A stretch of 64,000 bases of DNA from Escherichia coli (GTDB taxonomy: Bacteria; Pseudomonadota; Gammaproteobacteria; Enterobacterales; Enterobacteriaceae): the NCBI RefSeq assembly GCF_030384885.1, contig NZ_CP128613.1; one strand, given 5' to 3'. Each line of letters opens with the position of its first letter. The stretch's first letter is position 1. This document shows, in pieces, positions 2,632-53,260 of the stretch. Under the pieces are notes generated by a model, which saw nothing but the letters and a program-made list of their open reading frames with translations, was not told the DNA's origin and did not search any database. The translations under genes were made by a program, and so were the position numbers.

Positions 2632-8183
<5,552 letters not shown>

Positions 8184-21810: not shown

Positions 21811-22449
21811 ATGCCCGGGCGCTTTGAACTAAAACCAACCCTGGAGAAAGTCTGGCACGCGCCGGACAATTTTCGCTTCATGGACCCGCTACCGCCGATG
21901 CATCGTCGGGGGATCATTATTGCCGCTATTGTATTGGTGGTCGGATTTCTACTCCCGTCTGATGATACGCCAAACGCGCCGGTGGTGACGCGTGAAGCAC
22001 AGTTAGATATTCAGTCGCAATCACAACCGCCGACAGAAGAACAGCTGCGGGCGCAATTAGTCACACCACAAAATGATCCTGATCAGGTGGCTCCGGTCGC
22101 TCCAGAACCGATACAGGAAGGCCAACCGGAAGAGCAGCCGCAAACCTCGCAAGTGCAACCTTTCCAGCCAGATAGCGGAATTGACAATCAATGGCGCTCT
22201 TACCGTGTCGAACCCGGTAAAACGATGGCGCAGCTGTTCCGCGACCACGGACTGCCCGCTACCGATGTCTATGCAATGGCGCAGGTAGAAGGCGCGGGTA
22301 AGCCGCTGAGTAATTTGCAAAACGGGCAGATGGTGAAAATCCGCCAGAATGCCAGCGGCGTGGTGACGGGCTTAACCATTGATACGGGGAATAATCAACA
22401 GGTCCTGTTTACCCGCCAGCCGGATGGGAGTTTTATTCGTGCGCGGTAG
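21811..22449 (+). CDS. ytfB: Cell-division protein YtfB (OapA-domain)
   Basis: Start set at [13 protein letters not shown] (212 aa); TM segment then Pro/Gln-rich linker; 3' end overlaps the convergent TetR gene. Confidence 0.88.
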
Positions 22450-23080
22450 ATGAAGGGTCAACCAAAAGCCAGCTAAGGATTGTCTCTTTGATGACCTTAC
22501 GCCTGGCTTCCAGTGCCTGCGGTGAAACCATACTGATGTGATAAACCAGGCCAAGCGTATGCTGGTTGATCAAATAATATCCTCCAAGAGCAGCAATATT
22601 AATATTCACCTGCAACGGGTCGATATCTGGCTTAAAAATATTGCGCCGTTTGCCTTCAGCTAATAATGACTCCATTAACTGTAAGTGTGCGTGGTTAATT
22701 TCTAAAAGGCGCTGTGATTTTGCATAATGCACCCCTTTACTCTGGTTTTCACTATGCACAATTTTTAAAAACCAGGGGTTAGCAATGTAATAATCCCAGG
22801 TGAAATCGATAATTTTCTCAATGGCTTTTTGTGGCGGAAGACCTGAGAAATCAAGGGATTTTTCTTTTTGCCGAATATCATTCCAGGTATATTCCAGCAC
22901 TTCGATAAATAAATTTTCTTTATTACCAAAGTGATGATAAACCGTCTGTTTACTGCACTCCGCGGCCTTGACGATATTATCGACTCTGGCCCCTTCGTAA
23001 CCATATTCGGCAAATTCATTAACCGCACATAACAACAGCTTTTCCTTCAGGCTTTGTACGTTGCTGGTATCAAGATACAT
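22433..23080 (-). CDS. TetR/AcrR-family transcriptional regulator
   Basis: N-terminal HTH ([28 protein letters not shown]) typical of TetR; ATG at 23080 preferred over the GTG at 23140 used by the ORF track; divergent from the downstream operon. Confidence 0.8.
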
Positions 23081-23202
23081 TCCGCTTCCCCACGTCTTCT
23101 TCGTGATGACTATCTTAACCCGATTTGTTAGAAGCTCCACTAAAATGGCTAAAAACTCGCAATTTCATCGGGTTATCAAATGCTCTGTGATCATTATCGC
23201 AT

Positions 23203-23224
23203 ATCAACCAACTAGATGGTTGAT
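23203..23224. promoter_or_regulatory. Candidate TetR operator (inverted repeat) in divergent promoter region
   Basis: atcaacca-actaga-tggttgat, 8-bp perfect arms, between the TetR gene and the SDR gene; inference. Confidence 0.35.
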
Positions 23225-23291
23225 CTTTCTTGCCACACATTGCAAGCTAATCGTCACTTAAGGAAATAATATTCAAAAAGAGGGTTATTGT

Positions 23292-24083
23292 ATGAAGTCA
23301 ACACGTCCTGTTGCTGTCATCACTGGAGCCGCACGTGGTATTGGAAAGGGCTGTGCACTGGAACTTGCGCGTGGCGGATTTAATCTGCTGATTAATGATC
23401 GTCCGGATGCCGACAGCGTAGAAAAATTACATGCCACACAACAAGAATGTCTGGCGGAAGGCGTGGAAGTGATTTGCTTCCCTGCTGATGTTGGCGATCT
23501 CTCCCTTCATGAAGAGATGCTCGACGCGGCGCAAAACCAGTGGGGACGTCTGGACTGTCTACTCAACAACGCAGGCATTTCAGTGAAAAAACGCGGTGAC
23601 CTCCTCGACCTCGAACCAGACAGCTTCGACCAAAACATTGCCATTAACACCCGTGCGCCGTTCTTCCTTGCTCAGGCATTCAGTAAGCGATTACTGGCAC
23701 AGCCGAAACCGGAAGCAGAACTGCCGCACCGCTCGATTATTTTTGTCAGTTCCATAAACGCCATCATGCTGGCGATGAATCGCGGCGAATATACCATTGC
23801 CAAAACTGCCGTCTCCGCCGCAGCTCGTCTGTTTGCCGCTCGCCTTTGCAATGAACAAATTGGCGTTTATGAAGTGCGCCCTGGCCTAATCAAAACCGAT
23901 ATGACCATTCCGGCAACGGCTTATTACGACGAACTGATTGCTAAGGGGTTAGTGCCGTGGGGACGTTGGGGTTATCCGGCTGATATTGCCTCAACGGTCC
24001 GCGCGATGGCGGAAGGCAAACTGATTTACACCTGTGGTCAGGCGGTCGCCATCGACGGCGGCTTAAGTATGCCGCGCTTCTGA
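23292..24083 (+). CDS. Short-chain dehydrogenase/reductase (SDR)
   Basis: TGAARGIG cofactor motif, NNAG, and Ser...Y-x3-K catalytic motif (YTIAK) read directly. Confidence 0.85.
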   Translation: MKSTRPVAVITGAARGIGKGCALELARGGFNLLINDRPDADSVEKLHATQQECLAEGVEVICFPADVGDLSLHEEMLDAAQNQWGRLDCLLNNAGISVKKRGDLLDLEPDSFDQNIAINTRAPFFLAQAFSKRLLAQPKPEAELPHRSIIFVSSINAIMLAMNRGEYTIAKTAVSAAARLFAARLCNEQIGVYEVRPGLIKTDMTIPATAYYDELIAKGLVPWGRWGYPADIASTVRAMAEGKLIYTCGQAVAIDGGLSMPRF

Positions 24084-24092
24084 GGCTGAATC

Positions 24093-24935
24093 ATGAGAGA
24101 TCTGTTACAACGCCCGGATTTATTCAGTATCAATACTGCGACACTGGGCTATAAAACGCCGCTACCTGCCATTATTGATGCCTGCGCCGCACGCGGTATT
24201 GGCGCGATTGCCCCCTGGCGCAGGGAGTTACAGGGTGAAGATCTCCAGCAAATCGCCCGCCAGCTTGCTGCCAGTAACATGAGCGTTTCCGGTTTGTGTC
24301 GTAGCACCTATTACACCGCGCCGACGCTGACGGAACGCAAACTGGCGATTGATGATAACCGCCGGGCGCTGGACGACGCCGCTGTACTGAACGCCGCCTG
24401 TTATATGCAGGTGGTTGGCGGTCTGCCAATGGGAACAAAAGATCTGTACGAAGCGCGGGAACAAGTGAAACAAGGGATTCGCCAGTTGCTGCCACATTCG
24501 AAAGATGTCGGCGTGCCAATTGCGCTGGAGCCGCTGCACCCGATGACAGCTGCCGATCGCTCTTGCCTGTGCACGTTACGTCAGGCGCTGGACTGGTGTG
24601 ATGAACTCGATCCCGATGGGGAGTTTGGCCTCGGCGTGGCGGTGGATGTTTATCACGTCTGGTGGGACCCGGATCTCGCCAGTCAGATCCTGCGTGCCGG
24701 AAAACGCATCCTCGCGTTTCATGTTTCCGACTGGCTGGTGCCAACCACCGATTTAGTCAATGACCGGGGAATGCCGGGAGATGGCGTAATCAATATTCCG
24801 TCTATTCGTCGCCAGGTAGAAAATGCCGGATTTAACGGTGCTGTGGAACTGGAAATTTTCTCACCGTACTGGTGGCAGCAAGATATTAACAGCACGTTGG
24901 ATATTAGCGTCGATCGCATCGCGCATTATTGCTAA
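24093..24935 (+). CDS. Sugar-phosphate isomerase/epimerase-like (xylose-isomerase-type TIM barrel) protein
   Basis: 280-aa ORF; family assignment by overall resemblance only (…AFHVSDW…), no database check. Confidence 0.55.
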   Translation: MRDLLQRPDLFSINTATLGYKTPLPAIIDACAARGIGAIAPWRRELQGEDLQQIARQLAASNMSVSGLCRSTYYTAPTLTERKLAIDDNRRALDDAAVLNAACYMQVVGGLPMGTKDLYEAREQVKQGIRQLLPHSKDVGVPIALEPLHPMTAADRSCLCTLRQALDWCDELDPDGEFGLGVAVDVYHVWWDPDLASQILRAGKRILAFHVSDWLVPTTDLVNDRGMPGDGVINIPSIRRQVENAGFNGAVELEIFSPYWWQQDINSTLDISVDRIAHYC

Positions 24936-24938
24936 GGA

Positions 24939-25721
24939 ATGATCATGAGTGACCAACCCGTTCTGTTCAGCAGAGCGGCGGCTTCCTGCCGCCTGACATT
25001 GAACCGTGAAGATAAATGTCATGCTATTAATGAAGAAATGATCGAATCTCTCGACCATTATTTAAATGAAATTGAAAACGACACCACATTACGATTAGTC
25101 GAATTAACGGCAACCGGCGATAAATTCTTTTGTGCAGGCGGCGATATTAAATCGTGGTCAGCCTATTCGCCATTAGATATGGGCAGAAAATGGATTAAAC
25201 GCGGCAATGACGTTTTTAATCGCCTGCGCAATTTACCTCAATTAACGGTTGCGAATCTCAACGGTCATACCATCGGCGGTGGTATTGAACTTGCCTTGTG
25301 CTGCGATATTCGTATTGCTCGCCCCGGCGCGAAATTCTCTAATCCGGAAGTAATGCTCGGCATGGTGCCTGGCTGGATGGGCATTGAACGCGTGCTTAAT
25401 CAGGTCGGTCCGGTGGTCGGTCGCCAGATGCTGATGCTGGGTAAACGCCTGACGGCGCAGGAAGCTCAGGCAGCGAATTTAATTGATGAAGTGGTAGAAA
25501 AAGAACAGGTGGAAAGCTGGATGGCGAATCAGTTAGCGCAGCTGGAAAAATGCGGTCCGGTGGCGCTCGCACATATCAAGCAACTGATTCTGGCTCTAGA
25601 AAATAAACATGCTGATTACCCGCACCAGTTACTGGCTGGATTAATGTCCGCCACTCAGGATTGCCAGCAGGCGACGCGCGCATTTGCCGAAAAAAGTAGC
25701 GTGAGCTTCCAAAATCAATAA
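24939..25721 (+). CDS. Enoyl-CoA hydratase/isomerase (crotonase family)
   Basis: Crotonase signatures FFCAGGDIKSW and GHTIGGGIELALCCDIRIA. Confidence 0.85.
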   Translation: MIMSDQPVLFSRAAASCRLTLNREDKCHAINEEMIESLDHYLNEIENDTTLRLVELTATGDKFFCAGGDIKSWSAYSPLDMGRKWIKRGNDVFNRLRNLPQLTVANLNGHTIGGGIELALCCDIRIARPGAKFSNPEVMLGMVPGWMGIERVLNQVGPVVGRQMLMLGKRLTAQEAQAANLIDEVVEKEQVESWMANQLAQLEKCGPVALAHIKQLILALENKHADYPHQLLAGLMSATQDCQQATRAFAEKSSVSFQNQ

Positions 25722-25730
25722 GGAAATTGT

Positions 25731-27272
25731 ATGCGTAAGATAACAACCGCCGAGACACTGGCGGCGCAAATTCAGGACGGTGCAACCATTGCCATTAGCG
25801 GTAATGGCGGCGGCATGGTGGAAGCGGACCATATTCTGGCTGCTATTGAAGCGCGTTTCCTGCAAACCGGACACCCGCGCGATCTGACATTAATCCACTC
25901 GCTGGGCATTGGCGATCGCGACTGCAAAGGCACTAACCGCTTCGCTCATGCAGATATGCTCAAACGCATCATTGCCGGACATTTTACCTGGTCGCCCAAG
26001 ATGCAGGATCTGGTGAAAAACAATGCTATTGAAGCCTACTGCTTCCCTGGTGGCGTAATTCAGGCACTGCTGCGGGAGATCGGTGCCGGACGTCCAGGGC
26101 TTTTTACCCACGTTGGACTGGGATCGTTTGTTGATCCGCGCAACGGCGGCGGTAAGTCGAACGCCAGCACCACTGAGGATCTGGTAGAACTGATTGAAAT
26201 CGACGGTGAAACCAAACTTCGTTATCGCCCTTTCAAAGTGGATTACGCGATTTTGCGTGGCACTTATGCCGATCCTCGAGGCAACGTCAGCCTTGAAGAA
26301 GAGGCGATTGATATGGATAGCTATTCCATGGCGCTGGCAGCACACAACAGCGGTGGCAAAGTGTTCGTACAGGTGCGCGATGTGCTGGAAGCTGGTGCCA
26401 TTGAACCACGCCGGGTCAAATTACCGGGCATTCTGGTTGATGGCATCGTTGAACACCGCGAACAACCGCAAACATATCTTGGCGGTTACGACCTGACCAT
26501 CAGCGGTCAGCACCGCCGTTTAAGTTCTAACGACGCTATTGAACTGGTTACTCATCCGGTGCGCCGCCTGATTGCCCGTCGGGCAGCACGCGAACTGGTG
26601 GCTGGCGCTTCAACCAACTTTGGCTTTGGCATTCCCGGCGGCATTCCTGGGGTTGCACTGCGCGAAGGCGTGCCTTATCAAAGTTTATGGCTGAGCGTCG
26701 AGCAAGGCGTGCATAACGGTATGATGCTGGATGATGCTCTGTTCGGCTGCGCCCGTAACGCCGATGCCATTATTCCATCACTCGATCAATTCGAATTCTA
26801 CAGTGGCGGAGGGATCGATATCACCTTCCTCGGCATGGGAGAGATGGATCAGCATGGTAACGTCAACGTCTCCCATCTCAATGGCAATCTCATTGGCCCC
26901 GGCGGATTTCTCGAAATTGCGCAAAACGCCCGTAAAGTGGTGTTCTGTGGCACGTTCGACGCCAAAGGTAGCAAGATTGATGTAACACCAGATGGCTTGC
27001 ATATCGCCCAGTCAGGTCAAATCCCTAAACTGGTTACCCAAGTGGAAAAAATCACTTTTAGCGCCGCCTACGCACAGCAAAGCGGTCAGGAAGTGTTGTA
27101 TATCACTGAACGTGCAGTATTCCAATTAACAGCAGAAGGCGTTGAATTAATTGAAATCGCACCAGGTGTGGAGATTGAGCGCGACATTCTGCCATATATG
27201 GCTTTCCGTCCAATTATCAATCAGCCACGCCTGATGGAAAGTAGCCTGTTTACGCCGATGGAGGATGCATGA
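25731..27272 (+). CDS. Family-I CoA-transferase (YdiF/acetate CoA-transferase-like, fused A/B subunits)
   Basis: 513-aa ORF; long stretches resemble E. coli YdiF as I recall it (…VGLGSFVDPRNGGGK…); 3' end overlaps the next gene (ATGA). Confidence 0.8.
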   Translation: MRKITTAETLAAQIQDGATIAISGNGGGMVEADHILAAIEARFLQTGHPRDLTLIHSLGIGDRDCKGTNRFAHADMLKRIIAGHFTWSPKMQDLVKNNAIEAYCFPGGVIQALLREIGAGRPGLFTHVGLGSFVDPRNGGGKSNASTTEDLVELIEIDGETKLRYRPFKVDYAILRGTYADPRGNVSLEEEAIDMDSYSMALAAHNSGGKVFVQVRDVLEAGAIEPRRVKLPGILVDGIVEHREQPQTYLGGYDLTISGQHRRLSSNDAIELVTHPVRRLIARRAARELVAGASTNFGFGIPGGIPGVALREGVPYQSLWLSVEQGVHNGMMLDDALFGCARNADAIIPSLDQFEFYSGGGIDITFLGMGEMDQHGNVNVSHLNGNLIGPGGFLEIAQNARKVVFCGTFDAKGSKIDVTPDGLHIAQSGQIPKLVTQVEKITFSAAYAQQSGQEVLYITERAVFQLTAEGVELIEIAPGVEIERDILPYMAFRPIINQPRLMESSLFTPMEDA

Positions 27273-29350
27273 GTCAGCTTGATGACACCCTCCTTGATGC
27301 GCTGACGCATGTCACTTTCCCGAAGGGTTTTGCACAGGCAGAACCCGCATGGGTTGTCACGGTAGACGGTGTTGATTACCCACTCTGGCAAACAGATGCC
27401 CTGGTAGTCGGCAGTGGTGCAGCCGGGCTGCGTGCAGCTGTGGAACTTAAACGCCGCCAGCAAAATGTGTTGATCGCCACTGCCGGGTTATATATGGGGA
27501 CGTCGGCATGTTCTGGTTCCGATAAACAGACACTGTTTACCGCCGCTACCGCGGGCAATGGCGACAACTTCACCAAACTGGCAGAGGCACTGGCGAGCGG
27601 TGGAGCGATGGATCACGACACCGCTTATGTCGAAGCGGTAGGTTCTCTGCACACTCTTGGCGGGTTGCAATATCTTGGTCTGGAATTACCGGAAGATCGC
27701 TATGGCGCGATTCTTCGTTATCAAACCGACCATGACGAAGCCGGGCGTGCAACCTCGTGTGGGCCGCGTACCTCAAGGTTAATGGTGAAAGTGCTGTTGG
27801 AAGAAGTGCAGCGCCTCGCCATTCCAGTGTTGACCAGTGCAACAGTGATTAAACTGCTGCATCAGCGTGACGAAAACGGCGAAGACTGCGTGGCGGGGGC
27901 AATCCTCGCGACCGGTCATCGCGCCCATAACCCATGGGGGCTGGCAATTGTGACTGCGCCCAATGTGGTGCTGGCAACAGGAGGGCCTGGCGAGCTTTAT
28001 CGAGACAGTGTGTACCCACATAAATGCTTCGGCTCGCTGGGGCTGGCGCTGGAAGAAGGTCTGACGCTAACCAATCTGACCGAAAGCCAGTTTGGTATTG
28101 GCACGCCACGCAACACCTTTCCGTGGAATTTGTCCGGCACCTATGTACAGGTGATCCCATATATCTATTCCGTAGATGCTGAGGGCAACGAGTATAACTT
28201 CCTCACGGATTACTATCGAACTACCCAGGAACTGGCTTCAAACATCTTCCGTAAAGGCTATCAGTGGCCGTTTCACGCCACACGAGTGATGGATTTTGGC
28301 TCCAGCTTGTTAGATATGGCAGTAGCGCAAGAGCAGCAATCAGGGCGTCAGGTATTTATGGATTTCAATCGCAATCCTGAACCTGTGCCGGGTGACATGC
28401 CGTTCTCATTAGATCGACTGGACGACGACGTTCGCGCGTATCTGGAAAATAACGACGCTCTGGCACCATCGCCCATCGAACGACTGCAACGAATGAATCC
28501 GCTGTCTATCTCGCTGTATAAGATGCACGGTTACGATCTCACCACGCAGCCATTGCAGTTTGCCATGAATAATCAGCATATGAATGGCGGCATTGAAGTG
28601 GATATCTGGGGGCAAACCTCCCTGCCCGGCTGTTTCGCCGTGGGGGAAGTTGCTGGCACACACGGCGTTACCCGACCTGGCGGTGCGGCGCTGAATGCCG
28701 GACAGGTATTTGCCGTGCGACTGGCACGTTTTATTGGTTGCACACAAAAGCGGTCCGTTGAGGATGATATCGCGCAGCTGGTAGCCTCACCTCTGCATAC
28801 AATCAGAGAAGTTATCGCTCAGGCACTGGCAAACGAGAACGGAATGACGCTGGCAACGGTGAAAGAAAAAATCCAGGCGCGAATGTCTGATTACGCGGGA
28901 TTTATTTGCCATGCTGATAAAGTTCGTCACGCCGCCCGTGACGCCATGCTGTTAAATGAATTTGCGCAGCAACATGGTCTAACTATCAACCACGCCGGTG
29001 AAATTGCCGAGCTATTTATGTGGCGGCATATGGCATTAACATCCGCTGCGGTGTTAAGCCAGCTATCACATTATATTGATGCTGGCGGTGGTAGTCGTGG
29101 AGCACGGATGATTATTGATCCACAAGGAGAATATCTTCCACAAACTCGTCGCGGCGCAATCGAAGATTGGCGTTTTCGCTCTGAACAAGCTGAAGATAAA
29201 AATCACAGACTAACTCTCTCCTTTTCACAAGGTTTATTTATTAATGAAATTAAGTTCTTGAGAAACTTACCGCATATTAAAGGTATTTACTTTGAGAAGA
29301 ATTGGCCTGATTTTCTTAACGGAACAATTTATCAGACACGGCATGAATAA
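27269..29350 (+). CDS. FAD-dependent oxidoreductase (fumarate reductase/succinate dehydrogenase/L-aspartate oxidase-like flavoprotein)
   Basis: Dinucleotide-binding motif VVGSGAAGLRAA, HMNGG and GEVAGTHGVTRPGGAALN motifs of the FAD_binding_2 family; 693 aa with an AT-rich C-terminal tail. Confidence 0.75.
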   Translation: MSQLDDTLLDALTHVTFPKGFAQAEPAWVVTVDGVDYPLWQTDALVVGSGAAGLRAAVELKRRQQNVLIATAGLYMGTSACSGSDKQTLFTAATAGNGDNFTKLAEALASGGAMDHDTAYVEAVGSLHTLGGLQYLGLELPEDRYGAILRYQTDHDEAGRATSCGPRTSRLMVKVLLEEVQRLAIPVLTSATVIKLLHQRDENGEDCVAGAILATGHRAHNPWGLAIVTAPNVVLATGGPGELYRDSVYPHKCFGSLGLALEEGLTLTNLTESQFGIGTPRNTFPWNLSGTYVQVIPYIYSVDAEGNEYNFLTDYYRTTQELASNIFRKGYQWPFHATRVMDFGSSLLDMAVAQEQQSGRQVFMDFNRNPEPVPGDMPFSLDRLDDDVRAYLENNDALAPSPIERLQRMNPLSISLYKMHGYDLTTQPLQFAMNNQHMNGGIEVDIWGQTSLPGCFAVGEVAGTHGVTRPGGAALNAGQVFAVRLARFIGCTQKRSVEDDIAQLVASPLHTIREVIAQALANENGMTLATVKEKIQARMSDYAGFICHADKVRHAARDAMLLNEFAQQHGLTINHAGEIAELFMWRHMALTSAAVLSQLSHYIDAGGGSRGARMIIDPQGEYLPQTRRGAIEDWRFRSEQAEDKNHRLTLSFSQGLFINEIKFLRNLPHIKGIYFEKNWPDFLNGTIYQTRHE

Positions 29351-29370
29351 TATTGCAAAGGTTAATCACT

Positions 29371-29847
29371 ATGCGAAATATAATCAGATCTATTAATTCA
29401 TTGCTTTCCACGTTGAACATTACCATTTTGGCAATTATTGTGATGTGCGTTACATGGCAAGTAGTAGCACGATTTATCTTTAAAAGCCCCAGCATTTTTA
29501 CAGATGAACTTAGTCGTTTACTATTTATTTGTCTTGGACTTTTTGGTGGTGCTTATACTGCCGGACAAAACCGACATCTGGCCATTGATCTTCTGCCAAT
29601 GATGCTAAAAGGAAAATCCCGACGTTATTTATTCTTATGTATTCAGGCCATTGTTATTCTTTTTGCCTCTATCATTATGGTTTATGGTGGCGGGTTATTA
29701 ACACTGGACACATTTGATTCAGGGCAAACTTCTCCGGCTTTAGGCTGGCAGATGGGATATATTTACATGAGCATTCCAATAAGTGGCATCCTTATTATTA
29801 TATACACCATAGATACAGTTTTAACCGAACTTAAACAACCACTCTAA
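29371..29847 (+). CDS. TRAP transporter small permease (DctQ-like)
   Basis: About 158 aa with 4 predicted TM helices; ATG at 29371 with upstream aaagg preferred over the TTG at 29353; directly upstream of DctM. Confidence 0.75.
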   Translation: MRNIIRSINSLLSTLNITILAIIVMCVTWQVVARFIFKSPSIFTDELSRLLFICLGLFGGAYTAGQNRHLAIDLLPMMLKGKSRRYLFLCIQAIVILFASIIMVYGGGLLTLDTFDSGQTSPALGWQMGYIYMSIPISGILIIIYTIDTVLTELKQPL

Positions 29848-29869
29848 AATAAGTAGGGATGGAGAAAAC

Positions 29870-31171
29870 ATGGATTACTGGTTACCGATCATTGTGTTAT
29901 TTGGTTCTTTCTTTTTTATGTTGGCATTAGGTGTTCCTATTGTCTATGCTATTGGTTTATCAACACTGGCATCAATTACTACACAACTCGATTTCAACTC
30001 AGCATTGAGTGTGGTTTCACAAAAGTTAGCCTCCGGGTTAGATAGTTTTACGTTGTTGGCAATCCCATTTTTTATCTTGTCTGGCAACATTATGAATCAT
30101 GGAGGAATAGCGCGACGATTAATCAACTTTGCCCGTATTCTCGGCGGTCGTCTGCCAGGCTCACTTGCTCACTGTAATATTCTTGCCAATATGCTGTTCG
30201 GGGCAATTTCTGGTTCAGCTGTTGCTTCGGCGGCTGCGATGGGCGGCGTCATGCATCCACAGCAGGTTAAAGAGGGTTACGACCCGGCATTCAGTACCGC
30301 TGTTAACGTTGCCTCTGCACCGACAGGTTTACTTATTCCACCCAGTAATACGTTAATTGTCTTTTCACTGGTCAGTGGTGGTACTTCTATTGCCGCACTG
30401 TTCCTGGCAGGATATGTCCCGGGAATTTTATTGGGCCTGGCGCTGATGACTGTGGCTGGTATTATCGCGGTACGCCGGGGTTATCCAAAACCAGAACGTC
30501 CGACTTTGCGCCAGGCTGGAGTGGCAATATGGATGGCGATCCCCAGTATTTTCCTGATTGTATTAATTATGGGTGGTGTACTAAGCGGTATTTTTACCCC
30601 GACAGAAGCATCTGCAATTGCGGTAATTTATACCCTTTTCCTTGCACTGGTTCTTTATCGTGAAATATCAGTTAAAGATTTACCTAAGATATTTCTGGAG
30701 TCCGTCATTACCACTGCAATTGTCTTGTTGTTAATTGGTTCTTCAATGGGAATGTCATGGGCAATGTCAAACGCTGACGTTCCCTTCCTGATTCTCGATT
30801 TGCTTAACACTATTTCTGATAATCCAATAATAATCCTGCTTATTATCAATATTATTCTGTTGATTATCGGCACATTTATGGATATGACACCGGCAGTACT
30901 GATTTTTACGCCGATATTTTTACCCGTTGTCACCGAACTGGGCATGGACCCGATTCACTTTGGTATTGTCATGGTACTGAACATGTGTATCGGTATTTGT
31001 ACTCCGCCTGTAGGCAGTGTGTTATTTGTCGGTTGTAGTGTATCTAAATTACCGATTAATAAAATTATCAAACCTATGCTGCCCTTCTATGCCGTGATGG
31101 TATTGGTGCTGGCTATGGTGACCTATATTCCGCAAATCAGTATGGCATTGCCAAGAGCACTGGGCTACTGA
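29870..31171 (+). CDS. TRAP transporter large permease (DctM-like)
   Basis: 433-aa polytopic membrane protein; size and hydrophobicity pattern typical of DctM. Confidence 0.85.
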   Translation: MDYWLPIIVLFGSFFFMLALGVPIVYAIGLSTLASITTQLDFNSALSVVSQKLASGLDSFTLLAIPFFILSGNIMNHGGIARRLINFARILGGRLPGSLAHCNILANMLFGAISGSAVASAAAMGGVMHPQQVKEGYDPAFSTAVNVASAPTGLLIPPSNTLIVFSLVSGGTSIAALFLAGYVPGILLGLALMTVAGIIAVRRGYPKPERPTLRQAGVAIWMAIPSIFLIVLIMGGVLSGIFTPTEASAIAVIYTLFLALVLYREISVKDLPKIFLESVITTAIVLLLIGSSMGMSWAMSNADVPFLILDLLNTISDNPIIILLIINIILLIIGTFMDMTPAVLIFTPIFLPVVTELGMDPIHFGIVMVLNMCIGICTPPVGSVLFVGCSVSKLPINKIIKPMLPFYAVMVLVLAMVTYIPQISMALPRALGY

Positions 31172-31223
31172 TGCGCATTCACTGGCGGCTCCTGCCGCCA
31201 TATTTATTAGAAAAGGAACATCT

Positions 31224-32195
31224 ATGAAAATAAAAGTATCCGCTGGCATTATCGGTGCTGTTCTTATGTTATCTGCAGGCCAGTCCTGGGCAGTAACATT
31301 AAAACTTAGCCATAATCAGGATAAATCTCATCCTGTTCATAAAGCGATGGAGTTCTTTGCGAAAAAGAGCAAAGAGTACTCTAACGGTGATATTACTATT
31401 CGTATTTATCCAAATGGAACATTGGGTACTCAACGAGAAACAATGGAGCTGATTCGTTCTGGTGCTATTCCGCTGGTAAAAACCAATGCGGCGGAGATGG
31501 AAGCCTTCGAGAGTTCGTATAAAATATTTAGCCTGCCTTATTTGTTCCGCGATCGTGATCATTATTATCAGGTCATGCAAGGCGATATCGGAAGGAAAAT
31601 CCTCGACTCAACGAAAAACAAAGGTTATTTCGGTCTGACTTTCTATGATGGAGGCGCCCGCAGCTTCTACGGCAATAAACCGGTGCTGAAACCAGACGAT
31701 CTCAAAGGAATGAAAGTTCGTGTCCAGCCAAGCCCAGGGGCAGTTGAGATGATCAAAGTCATGGGAGGTAACCCAACACCGCTGGATTATGGAGAGTTGT
31801 ACACAGCATTGCAGCAAGGTGTGGTTGATATGGCGGAAAACAGTGTGATGGCGCTGACCACCATGCGCCACGGTGAAGTAGCAAAATCCTTCAGCCTTGA
31901 CGAACACACTATGGTTCCTGATGTGGTTCTAATGAGCAATGCTTCGTTTGATAAGCTTAGCCCGGAAAATCAGGCAGCTATATTAAAAGCAGCTAAAGAA
32001 TCAATGAGCTACATGAAAGACTTGTGGAGCGAGGAAGAGAAAAAAGAATTCGCTAAACTGGATCAAATGGGCGTGAAAGTCTACAAGGTTGATAAAGCAC
32101 CGTTTATCGAGAAAGTGCAGCCGATGTACGCAGCCTTTGCTAAGGAAAACCCTGCTCTCGCCCCAATGCTAACTGATATTCAGGCGACTAAGTAA
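31224..32195 (+). CDS. TRAP transporter substrate-binding protein (DctP-like), periplasmic
   Basis: 323 aa, signal peptide MKIKVSAGIIGAVLMLSAGQSWA; DctP-size soluble protein adjacent to DctQM. Confidence 0.8.
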   Translation: MKIKVSAGIIGAVLMLSAGQSWAVTLKLSHNQDKSHPVHKAMEFFAKKSKEYSNGDITIRIYPNGTLGTQRETMELIRSGAIPLVKTNAAEMEAFESSYKIFSLPYLFRDRDHYYQVMQGDIGRKILDSTKNKGYFGLTFYDGGARSFYGNKPVLKPDDLKGMKVRVQPSPGAVEMIKVMGGNPTPLDYGELYTALQQGVVDMAENSVMALTTMRHGEVAKSFSLDEHTMVPDVVLMSNASFDKLSPENQAAILKAAKESMSYMKDLWSEEEKKEFAKLDQMGVKVYKVDKAPFIEKVQPMYAAFAKENPALAPMLTDIQATK

Positions 32196-49856: not shown

Positions 49857-49892
49857 GACAAAAAAAAACCATCCAAATATGGATGGTTTTTC
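49857..49892. terminator. Intrinsic terminator downstream of rlmB (rnr-rlmB operon)
   Basis: aaaaaaaa-accatcc-aaatat-ggatggt-ttttc: hairpin with A-run and T-run on either side. Confidence 0.8.
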
Positions 49893-50818: not shown

Positions 50819-53260
50819 TCACTCTGCCACTTTTTTCTTCGCCGCACGCTTCGCTTTGGTCGCTGCGGCTATTTTCTGCGTTTTCGCCGATGGCTTTTTC
50901 GATTTTCTCGCGTCTTTCTTCGCCGCTTTCGGCTTCGTTTTTTTCTCGCCACGGAAGGCGCTGTCTGGCTCAAAGTTTACCTTTTTACCGACCTGGCGAC
51001 GCTTGCCGCCTTTTTTGCCTGCATCGCCTTTTTTCGCTTTCTCGCGCGCGGTTTTACCGACGTTGCGCGGTGCGCGTTCGCTGGAGATCAGGCTAAAGTC
51101 GATTTTGCGCTCGTCCATATTAACCGCTTCGACGCGAACTTCCACGCGATCGCCCAGGCGATAAGTCTGGCCGCTGGATTCACCCATCAGGCGTTGTCCC
51201 ACCTGGTCAAAGCGATAGTAGTCATTGTCCAGCGAAGAGACGTGGACCAGACCATCGATGAACAAGTCATCCAGGCGAACAAAGAAGCCAAAACCAGTGA
51301 CGCTGGAAATTACGCCTTTAAAGATGTTACCTACCTGGTCGAGCATGAAGTCACACTTCAGCCAGTCAGCCACATCACGCGTTGCTTCGTCGGCACGACG
51401 TTCCGCCATCGAACAGTGCTGACCCAGTTGCAGCATCTCTTCCATCGAATAATGGTAGCCGCCGGTTTCAGTGGTATTCCCCTGATGCCCCTGCTCTTTC
51501 GCCAGCAGATACTTAATGGCGCGGTGGAGCGTCAGATCAGGATAACGACGAATCGGCGAAGTAAAGTGCGCATAGGACTGCAATGCCAGACCGAAGTGAC
51601 CGCGGTTTTCCGGATCGTAAATCGCTTGTTTCATCGAGCGCAACAGCATGGTTTGCAGCATTTCTGCGTCAGGACGGTCAGCAACCGATTCCAGCAGTTC
51701 CGCGTAGTCACGCGGTTCCGGCTTGTTACCGCCAGGCAATTCCAGCCCCAGTTCCGCCAGCACTGAACGGAAAGAGGTTATCGCTTCGGTGCTCGGCTTG
51801 TCGTGAATACGGAACAGTGCCGGTTCTTTGGCCTTCTCAACGAAACGCGCCGCCGAGATATTCGCCAGAATCATGCACTCTTCAATTAACTTGTGTGCGT
51901 CGTTACGCTGGGTCTGTTCGATACGCTCAATACGGCGTTCAGCGTTGAAAATGAACTTCGCTTCTTCGCTCTCAAACGAGATCCCGCCGCGTTCTTCACG
52001 GGCTTTATCCAGCACTTTATAGAGGTTATGCAGCTCTTCGAGATGCTTAACCAGCGGGGAGTACTGCTCGCGCAGATCCTGATCGCCCTGCAGAATATGC
52101 CAGACTTTGGTGTAGGTCAGACGCGCGTGAGAGCTCATCACCGCTTCATAGAATTTGTAGCCAGTCAGGCGGCCTTTCGACGAAACCGTCATCTCGCACA
52201 CCATACACAGGCGGTCTACCTGCGGGTTGAGCGAACACAGGCCGTTAGAGAGCACTTCCGGCAGCATCGGGATAACCTGCGAAGGGAAGTACACCGACGT
52301 ACCACGGTTACGCGCTTCTCTATCCAGCGGTGTTGGCGGACGCACATAGTAACTGACGTCGGCAATTGCGACCCACAAACGCCAGCCGCCGCCGCGTTTT
52401 TTCTCGCAGTAAACTGCATCGTCAAAGTCACGGGCGTCTTCGCCATCAATGGTGACCAGCGGTAAATCGCGCAGATCGACACGGCCAGCTTTCGCCTCTT
52501 CCGGTACTTCTTCTTTCAGCCCGGCAACCTGTTGCTCAACAGCCTGCGGCCAGATGTACGGAATTTCATGGGTACGCAGGGCGATATCAACCGCCATGCC
52601 GGTGCCCATATTATCGCCCAGCACTTCGACGATTTTACCCACCGCTTTGGTACGGCGAGTCGGGCGTTGGGTCAGTTCAACCACCACCACAAAGCCCATC
52701 CGCGCGCCCATGATCTGATCGGGCGGGATTAAAATATCGAAGCTCAGACGGCTGTCGTCAGGAACCACAAAGCCGACACCCGCTTCAGTAAAGTAGCGAC
52801 CAACAATCTGGCTGGTTTTTGGCACCAGTACGCGGACAATACGCGCTTCACGGCGGCCTTTACGGTCAGCGCCCAGCGGCTGTGCCAGCACCTGATCGCC
52901 ATGAATGCAGGTTTTCATCTGCTCGCTGGAGAGATACAAATCATCTTTACGCCCTTCAACCCGCAGAAAGCCGTAGCCATCACGGTGGCCAATAACGGTA
53001 CCTTTCACCAGGTCGAGGCGTTCCGGCAGCGCATAGCACTGACGGCGAGTAAAGACCAGTTGACCATCGCGCTCCATCGCGCGCAGGCGGCGACGCAGGC
53101 CTTCAAGCTGCTCTTCGCCTTCAATGTGCAGTTCTACCGCCAACTCATCACGGCTGGCCGGTTTTTCACGTTTGGTTAAATGTTCGAGGATAAATTCCCG
53201 ACTAGGGATGGGATTCGCGTATTTTTCAGCTTCGCGTTCCTGGAAAGGATCTTGTGACAT
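50819..53260 (-). CDS. rnr: Ribonuclease R
   Basis: Start set at [13 protein letters not shown] (813 aa); RNB and S1 regions with lysine-rich C-terminal tail. Confidence 0.95.

Follow-up and report, generated by a model that had tools for sequence, protein, structure and literature searches.

The divergent arrangement of a TetR-family regulator gene and an operon of transport and catabolic genes in Escherichia coli raises the question of whether the palindrome that lies between them is the operator through which the regulator controls its neighbours. The window, i.e., the whole stretch of E. coli DNA analysed here, comprises 64,000 nucleotides, and its positions are used throughout. Comparison with related loci suggests that the 22-bp element at 23203-23224 is probably the operator of the adjacent regulator, YtfA, within a model in which the operon is controlled by a repressor and by CRP; we assign this reading a probability of roughly 0.75. 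The main interpretation is well supported by the comparative evidence; YtfA binding, repression, the promoter elements, the start site, the class of CRP promoter and the inducer are inferred.

The ytfA locus and its operon

The 211-bp spacer at 23081-23291 separates the TetR gene on the minus strand from an SDR gene on the plus strand, which starts at 23292; this layout, as given in the original prediction, agrees with the RefSeq annotation. The regulator gene (22433-23080, minus strand) is an orthologue of ytfA according to Pfam and RefSeq annotation and encodes a protein of 215 amino acids. Like other members of the TetR family, the protein consists of an N-terminal TetR_N helix-turn-helix (PF00440, 2e-13) and an all-helical C-terminal ligand domain (TetR_C_29, PF17938, 2.8e-30), both of which score over their cut-offs. 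A PDB search with YtfA matched 71 TetR-family chains, and the identical E. coli record in RefSeq carries a TetR/AcrR family regulator in the same gene layout. The segment 22400-24100 is 100% identical to E. coli 2013C-4282.

The operon occupies 23292-32195 on the plus strand, as assigned from open reading frames, Pfam, NCBIfam and RefSeq. This nine-gene transport and catabolic unit codes for the SDR protein, a xylose-isomerase-like TIM barrel, an enoyl-CoA hydratase, a CoA transferase (513 amino acids), a FAD_binding_2 oxidoreductase (693 amino acids) and the TRAP transporter components DctQ, DctM and DctP. Direct reading of the sequence places a Shine-Dalgarno motif, GAGGG, at 23280-23284 (plus strand), with the ATG of the first operon gene 7 nt on, at 23292.

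The TetR gene and the operon together (22433-32195) make up a variable island that has ytfB on one side and rplI on the other. At the same position in E. coli K-12 MG1655 (locus L089) there is only a 402-bp ytfA pseudogene and yjfZ, and about 58% of the complete E. coli genomes contain at least 80% of 22400-24100. YtfA is the sole regulator gene in the cassette, and the cassette is found at differing chromosomal positions. The same divergent gene order occurs in Salmonella, Leminorella, Lelliottia, Klebsiella and Entomohabitans, and in four metagenomic or other orthologous loci.

The similarity of YtfA to characterised regulators is limited. Residues 14-155 show a weak, extended similarity to FadR (44 bits in NCBIfam, against a cut-off of 200 bits), the FadR-type PDB matches being 5gpa, 3whb and 1vi0 (E-values of 1e-5 to 1e-9), and orthologues of YtfA are labelled KstR2 in some databases. 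FadR-type TetR proteins respond to acyl-CoA. NCBIfam and PDB searches for a name for the pathway returned generic names only, and the literature searched contained no description of the operator or of the operon's function, nor any functional study of the cassette.

The nearest solved relatives of the TRAP substrate-binding protein (31224-32195) include the DctP structures 4N91, 4MHF and 4N15 (E-values of 1e-60 to 1e-71). The ligands of 4N91 and 4MHF are D-glucuronate or D-galacturonate, and all three proteins belong to a hexuronate-binding group (PMC7660916). A sugar-acid transporter is an odd partner for a CoA transferase, an enoyl-CoA hydratase and a fumarate-reductase-like flavoprotein, and the pathway is uncharacterised. 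The effector of YtfA would most plausibly be a carboxylate of the sugar-acid type or the CoA thioester formed from such a compound.

The palindrome and its chance expectation

The main palindrome was found exactly where it had been reported, at 23203-23224, with the sequence ATCAACCAaCTAGaTGGTTGAT. Read with a central gap it consists of two 8-nt arms, ATCAACCA-ACTAGA-TGGTTGAT, and the assignment of this stretch as a candidate operator draws on the inverted-repeat reading, on shuffled sequences and on conservation. Since the inner CTAG pairs as well, the element can also be read ungapped, with 11-nt arms that form 10 of 11 complementary pairs over 22 bp. It is thus a dyad-symmetric site within the size range of about 15-30 bp that is typical of TetR-type operators. 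When the 211-bp spacer was shuffled 20,000 times, an equally good palindrome arose in 53 cases (0.27%), and palindromes of such quality number two in the 64-kb window, against 0.48 expected.

The other of the two, AACCATCCAAATATGGATGGTT at 49867-49888, lies between two minus-strand open reading frames and is preceded by a run of eight A and followed by a run of five T; it looks like a bidirectional intrinsic terminator, unrelated to the operator. A search of the 64 kb with the 18-nt core of the operator gave no other match with two or fewer mismatches. One sequence with three mismatches, AAACCAGCCAGATTGTTG (52801-52818, minus strand), was considered as a second operator copy and rejected; it is located inside an open reading frame of 827 amino acids and is probably a chance match.

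Because CAAC occurs twice in the left arm, the element contains three copies of the half-site: H1, ATCAACCA, at 23203-23210; H2, ACCAACTA, at 23207-23214; and the inverted H3, TGGTTGAT, at 23217-23224. H1 together with H3 makes up the 8-6-8 palindrome of the original prediction (register A). H2 together with H3 provides an alternative dyad with 8-2-8 geometry, ACCAACTA-GA-TGGTTGAT at 23207-23224 (register B), which follows the geometry of homologous loci and of the RutR box. The position of the dyad is therefore ambiguous, since three overlapping half-sites permit two registers. Register B forms 6 of 8 pairs in the window and 7 of 8 in E. coli sequences with C at 23213.

Conservation in orthologous spacers

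We compared 14 spacers, from Escherichia (including two E. coli, E. albertii and E. whittamii), Klebsiella spallanzanii, Entomohabitans, Salmonella, Leminorella, Lelliottia and four further loci, three of them metagenomic and one from a Salmonella assembly. The TetR proteins of these four are 57-66% identical to that of the window, and the range over the 14 orthologous spacers is 57-97%. In all orthologues the regulator gene is divergent from genes for the SDR protein, the TIM barrel, the enoyl-CoA hydratase and the CoA transferase.

The positions invariant in 14 of 14 spacers are AACCAAC (23206-23212), GGTTG (23218-23222), T23224 and C23225, which gives a conserved core at 23206-23225 with the pattern AACCAAC-N5-GGTTG-N-TC. 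Nine of 23 operator positions vary, compared with 161 of 171 (94%) elsewhere in the spacer (Fisher p = 1.3e-9); for the Escherichia spacers by themselves, the numbers are 3 of 23 and 66 of 171. The enterobacterial consensus reads T(C/A)AACCAAC(C/T)A(G/T)(A/T)TGGTTGATC. Bearing on the choice of register, the outer AACC of register A (23206-23209) is invariant in the enterobacteria and position 23213 is variable. In the metagenomic orthologue L088, the pair 23214/23217 is changed from A-T to G-C.

The palindrome is also present in the TetR-SDR spacer of enterotoxigenic E. coli (ETEC) H10407. Beyond the enterobacteria, a metagenome-assembled genome of the Acidobacteriaceae codes for a TetR protein 41% identical to YtfA, with genes for an SDR protein, an enoyl-CoA hydratase and a CoA transferase on the divergent side. 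The spacer between them contains TAACCAACCAGTTGGTTGAT, downstream of a TATAGT, with 17 of 22 positions the same as in the window. The original prediction of a TetR operator at the palindrome would have been contradicted by its absence from orthologous loci; instead, the site is present with little change in the 14 spacers, in H10407 and in the Acidobacteria orthologue, always between the regulator and the presumed regulated gene.

In L088 there is a second copy of the operator, AAACCAACCGAATGGTTGGTTT, 46 bp downstream of the first. This copy, situated downstream of the predicted promoter, is fully symmetric and has AACC and GGTT doubled on both arms.

The same palindrome could in principle act as an RNA hairpin, i.e., an intrinsic terminator or attenuator, rather than as a protein-binding DNA site. 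A terminator scan did flag it, as a stem of 8 pairs with a 6-nt loop followed by CTTTCTTGCC, and the predicted fold has an energy of -9.1 kcal/mol, with z = -2.8 against shuffles. The details are nevertheless at odds with such a role: just 3 of the 8 pairs are G-C, the T run is interrupted (tail CUUUCUUG), no plus-strand gene ends upstream and the element is situated upstream of the predicted transcription start. Judged by these features, a rho-independent terminator was rejected. Conservation also tells against a hairpin: the arms are kept as sequence and lack compensatory changes, since substitutions in the outer part of the left arm are unmatched on the right, and homologous regulator genes are preceded by the same motif irrespective of how the transcripts are laid out. 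A search of 22950-23400 against Rfam gave no match at E of 1 or less. We consider a function as an RNA hairpin extremely unlikely.

The motif in homologous regulators

If the palindrome is read by YtfA, a related motif would be expected beside related regulators irrespective of the neighbouring genes. A genome scan yielded 45 full-length homologues of YtfA (32-42% identical), mostly from Alphaproteobacteria and in unrelated gene contexts. The alphaproteobacterial homologues had been expected beside the same operon, which is not so; one, for example, has ABC-transporter, amidase and GNAT genes around it. The differing contexts thereby provide evidence that the motif tracks the regulator. A match was defined as agreement with AACCAACC-N4-GGTT at no fewer than 10 of 12 positions within 420 nt upstream of the TetR gene.

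By this rule the motif is found upstream of 35 of the 45 homologous TetR genes (78%), compared with 5% of 953 background windows from the same loci and none of 28 distant TetR genes that share only the helix-turn-helix match. With 78% of homologous loci in unrelated contexts against a background of 5%, the motif follows the regulator across gene contexts. The homologous loci were retrieved by helix-turn-helix peptide patterns, so the family-wide motif is valid for that selected subfamily only. A subfamily that shares the recognition helix thus shares the motif, which is the pattern expected if the helix reads this DNA. The motif AACCAACC-N4-GGTT also predicts operators for dozens of homologous regulators.

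Some background windows in the alphaproteobacterial loci (L008-L053) match AACCAACC-N4-GGTT at 11-12 of 12 positions, and may represent further operators before neighbouring target genes. Homologues that lack the 4-bp repeat of the left arm show the 8-2-8 form only, such as ATCAACCA-GA-TGTTTGAT in L010 and ACCAACCA-TC-TGGTTGAT in L024.

The 8-2-8 form brings to mind the box of RutR, TTGACCAnnTGGTCAA (PMC2475637), and the palindrome might accordingly be the site of a regulator encoded elsewhere, notably RutR, with YtfA acting at another place or not at all. Both proteins belong to the TetR family, and their sites share the geometry xACCA-NN-TGGTx, with AACC-N4-GGTT for YtfA and GACC-N4-GGTC for RutR. 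Register B matches the RutR box at 8 of 14 positions in the window and at 9 of 14 in those E. coli that carry C at 23213, positions 4 and 13 included. These values fall in the lower range of the sites bound by RutR in vivo, which have 7 to 13 of 14 matches, one of them with a CCAACCA half-site (PMC2475637). The differences from the box are nonetheless systematic: A for G and T for C are invariant on both arms, so that G3 and C14 are replaced symmetrically. The helix-turn-helix regions of the two proteins, while alike, are just 34% identical, and the recognition helix (VSKTNLLYYF in RutR) and the C-terminal domain differ from those of YtfA. Furthermore, RutR is a multi-target regulator, whereas the YtfA site is tied to one cassette, and YtfA-type genes of Acidobacteria and Alphaproteobacteria are accompanied by the motif in unrelated contexts and at differing chromosomal positions. 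Control of this site by RutR or another distant regulator is in our estimate very improbable, and the adjacent YtfA is preferred as its ligand.

A CRP site beside the probable operator

The original prediction made no mention of a CRP-type site that adjoins the palindrome. A pattern search located it at 23186-23201, TGTGAtcattaTCGCA, with 9 of 10 consensus positions of TGTGA-N6-TCACA. Matches of such quality to the CRP pattern number three in the window, against 1.9 expected, and taken alone the match is not rare, but the place of this site is fixed in the orthologues, one base upstream of the operator, and in Leminorella the site is a perfect TGTGA-N6-TCACA.

In a published CRP ChIP-seq study of ETEC H10407, TGTGATCACTATCGCA is listed as a peak site between an ETEC-specific gene and ytfA (PMC4287617). 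We located this 16-mer in the TetR-SDR spacer of H10407, where it is directly followed by ATCAACCAACCAGATGGTTGATC. The published peak coordinate, 4940903, is about 190 bp from the position of the 16-mer in RefSeq (4941093-4941108), whereas the sequence and the gene assignment agree (PMC4287617). According to the ChIP-seq data published for ETEC H10407, CRP occupied this site in vivo in that strain.

In Entomohabitans, an insertion of about 210 bp parts the TetR gene from the CRP-operator module, and the distance between the module and the SDR gene is kept. The insertion itself (Entomohabitans teleogrylli, L006, about 4700-4950) is G+C-rich and is situated between the regulator promoter and the module.

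Upstream of the CRP site, the spacer contains an A-rich block (AAAAGG..AAAAA) followed by TTTCAT...GTTAT.AA (23140-23180), which is moderately conserved in the enterobacteria; it could be an UP-like or DNA-bending region.

Predicted promoters and their relation to the probable operator

A consensus sigma-70 scan of 22900-23450 detected no promoter at its threshold, and in its place the 14 spacers were scanned with position weights, the operator serving as anchor. The sole promoter-like arrangement that is positionally conserved in 14 of 14 consists of a -35 element TTGATC, a spacing of 17 bp and a -10 element CA(A/T)NNT, with a mean of 5.9 bits, compared with 0.3 or less elsewhere. In the window, the anchored scan thus predicts for the operon promoter a -35 TTGATC at 23220-23225 (plus strand), inside the right arm of the operator (H3), and a -10 CAAGCT at 23243-23248 (plus strand), which is weak. 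The -10 in the orthologues is mostly CATCTT or CATTTT, with TGaTAAGTT in L088. The -35 shares its bases with the operator, and its conservation is thus confounded with that of the operator.

These elements would place transcription start of the operon near 23255, with the CRP centre (23193.5) at -61.5 and the operator at about -52 to -31. A CRP site at -61.5 occupies a class I position. With the -35 inside the right arm, the stronger conservation of the outer GATC there, compared with the outer ATC of the left arm, would be accounted for as well.

The conserved block might then be a CRP-dependent promoter and nothing else, made up of an extended contact with CRP and alpha-CTD and of the -35, the dyad being incidental. 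The right arm does hold the predicted -35, and the block abuts a CRP site that was bound in vivo. The invariant AACCAAC of the left arm is left unexplained by such a promoter, as is the motif of the Acidobacteria orthologue, which lies downstream of a TATAGT, and the motif also stands before homologous TetR genes in GC-rich Alphaproteobacteria, with no CRP site noted beside it. We regard a promoter-only function as highly improbable and retain a probable operator that overlaps the predicted promoter.

On the minus strand, a -10 TAAGAT at 23112-23117 is predicted for the regulator's own promoter from its conservation in the orthologues. Its counterparts read TAAGAT, TATGAT, TATAAT or TATAGT and precede the start codon of the TetR gene by 33-44 nt, in four cases with a TG extended -10. 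The distance from this -10 to the operator is about 90-110 bp, and about 210 bp further in Entomohabitans. The original proposal that the operator overlies both divergent promoters is thus not supported: on the operon side the predicted promoter has its -35 in the right arm, and on the regulator side the conserved -10 is about 100 bp away. With the regulator's predicted promoter some 100 bp from the operator, autoregulation is not indicated, and ytfA is probably not directly autoregulated through 23203-23224.

The distant inverted pair

A second, more distant inverted pair had also been reported in the spacer, and it is indeed present: the reported 8-mers extend to a perfect 9-nt pair, TAACCCGAT at 23116-23124 and ATCGGGTTA at 23167-23175, with 42 nt between the arms. 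It is not significant: a perfect inverted repeat of at least 9 nt occurred in 382 of 5,000 shuffled spacers (7.6%). The pair is also lost outside Escherichia. A pair that 7.6% of the shuffles equal is not beyond chance expectation.

A second functional element, either another operator over the regulator promoter or a partner in DNA looping, would draw on several features of the pair. The left arm overlaps the -10 region of the regulator, the right arm is loosely like an operator half-site, and the pairing, perfect in the window, is kept in E. whittamii by a matched double change of C to T and G to A. The frequency among shuffles tells against such a function, and so does the decay of the pair within Escherichia, where it has 8 of 9 pairs in E. 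coli E69 and 7 of 9 in E. albertii and the second E. coli; no trace of it was detected in the Salmonella, Klebsiella, Leminorella and metagenomic orthologues. A role as a second element is decidedly improbable, and the pair is treated as a chance occurrence or at most a lineage-specific feature.

A model for control of the operon, and comparison with known systems

In the proposed model, a YtfA dimer, or a pair of dimers, would occupy the element when inducer is lacking. Bound YtfA would cover the -35 at 23220-23225 and the DNA between the -35 and the CRP site at 23186-23201, and the operon, from the SDR gene to the TRAP transporter, would be off. Binding of an inducer to the TetR_C_29 domain would remove the repressor from the DNA; this inducer would probably be the sugar-acid-like carboxylate that the TRAP system transports, or else its CoA thioester. 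CRP-cAMP, bound about 61.5 bp upstream of the start, would then activate the weak promoter in a class I manner. With release of the repressor and activation by CRP combined, the operon would be expressed only when its substrate is present and preferred carbon sources are lacking. The regulator gene would be transcribed from its own promoter about 100 bp away, probably without direct autoregulation through the operator.

Like TetR and tetO, the YtfA locus has a regulator gene divergent from its presumed target, a dyad of about 18-22 bp in the spacer over the predicted target promoter and an expected release by inducer. Unlike tetO, the locus has one operator about 100 bp from the regulator promoter, with no autoregulation evident; this operator stands beside a CRP activator site, and its left half-site is duplicated at a 4-bp offset. 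The acyl-CoA-responsive TetR repressors (Bacillus FadR/YsiA, KstR2 and PaaR) are comparable in that YtfA is encoded beside CoA transferase, enoyl-CoA hydratase and SDR genes, but YtfA scores far under the cut-offs of these families and the sequence of its operator is different. A parallel in logic is with class I CRP promoters that are also under a specific repressor, as in the lac system: CRP is at -61.5 of the proposed start, the core promoter is weak and there is a putative site for a substrate-specific repressor. In contrast to the lac-type arrangement, the candidate YtfA site fills the stretch from CRP to the predicted -35, and it is this -35 rather than the proposed start site that it overlaps.

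The switch is a previously undescribed instance of the ordinary type that combines a repressor with CRP, and its mechanism is conventional. The analysis offers a specific operator and promoter model for YtfA, an uncharacterised TetR regulator that is a pseudogene in K-12, whereas about 58% of complete E. coli genomes, and some Salmonella, Klebsiella and other enterobacteria, have an intact copy along with the operon. Knowledge of the operator should make it easier to design reporter fusions and inducer screens and to find the substrate of the TRAP and CoA-transferase catabolic island. Most unusual are the conserved, asymmetric layout of three half-sites and the uncharacterised pathway under its control.

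Asymmetry of the half-sites and Dam sites

The asymmetric layout of half-sites has the same orientation relative to the regulator gene from Alphaproteobacteria to Enterobacteriaceae. In 38 of 46 loci, a count that includes the Acidobacteria locus, it is the side towards the regulator gene that has the doubled AACC, as in the window. A broader reading of the element, with H1 and H2 offset by 4 bp, would have it bind YtfA in two registers or as a QacR-like pair of dimers, respond to Dam methylation and control an uncharacterised CoA-dependent pathway for a hexuronate-like sugar acid in about 58% of complete E. coli genomes; taken as a whole, this combination is speculative and rather unlikely. 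With respect to Dam methylation, there are two GATC sites in this part of the spacer, one inside the CRP site (23189-23192) and the other at the right end of the operator (23222-23225), the latter kept in 13 of 14 orthologues. Their positions at the operator end and within the CRP site could confer sensitivity to Dam methylation.
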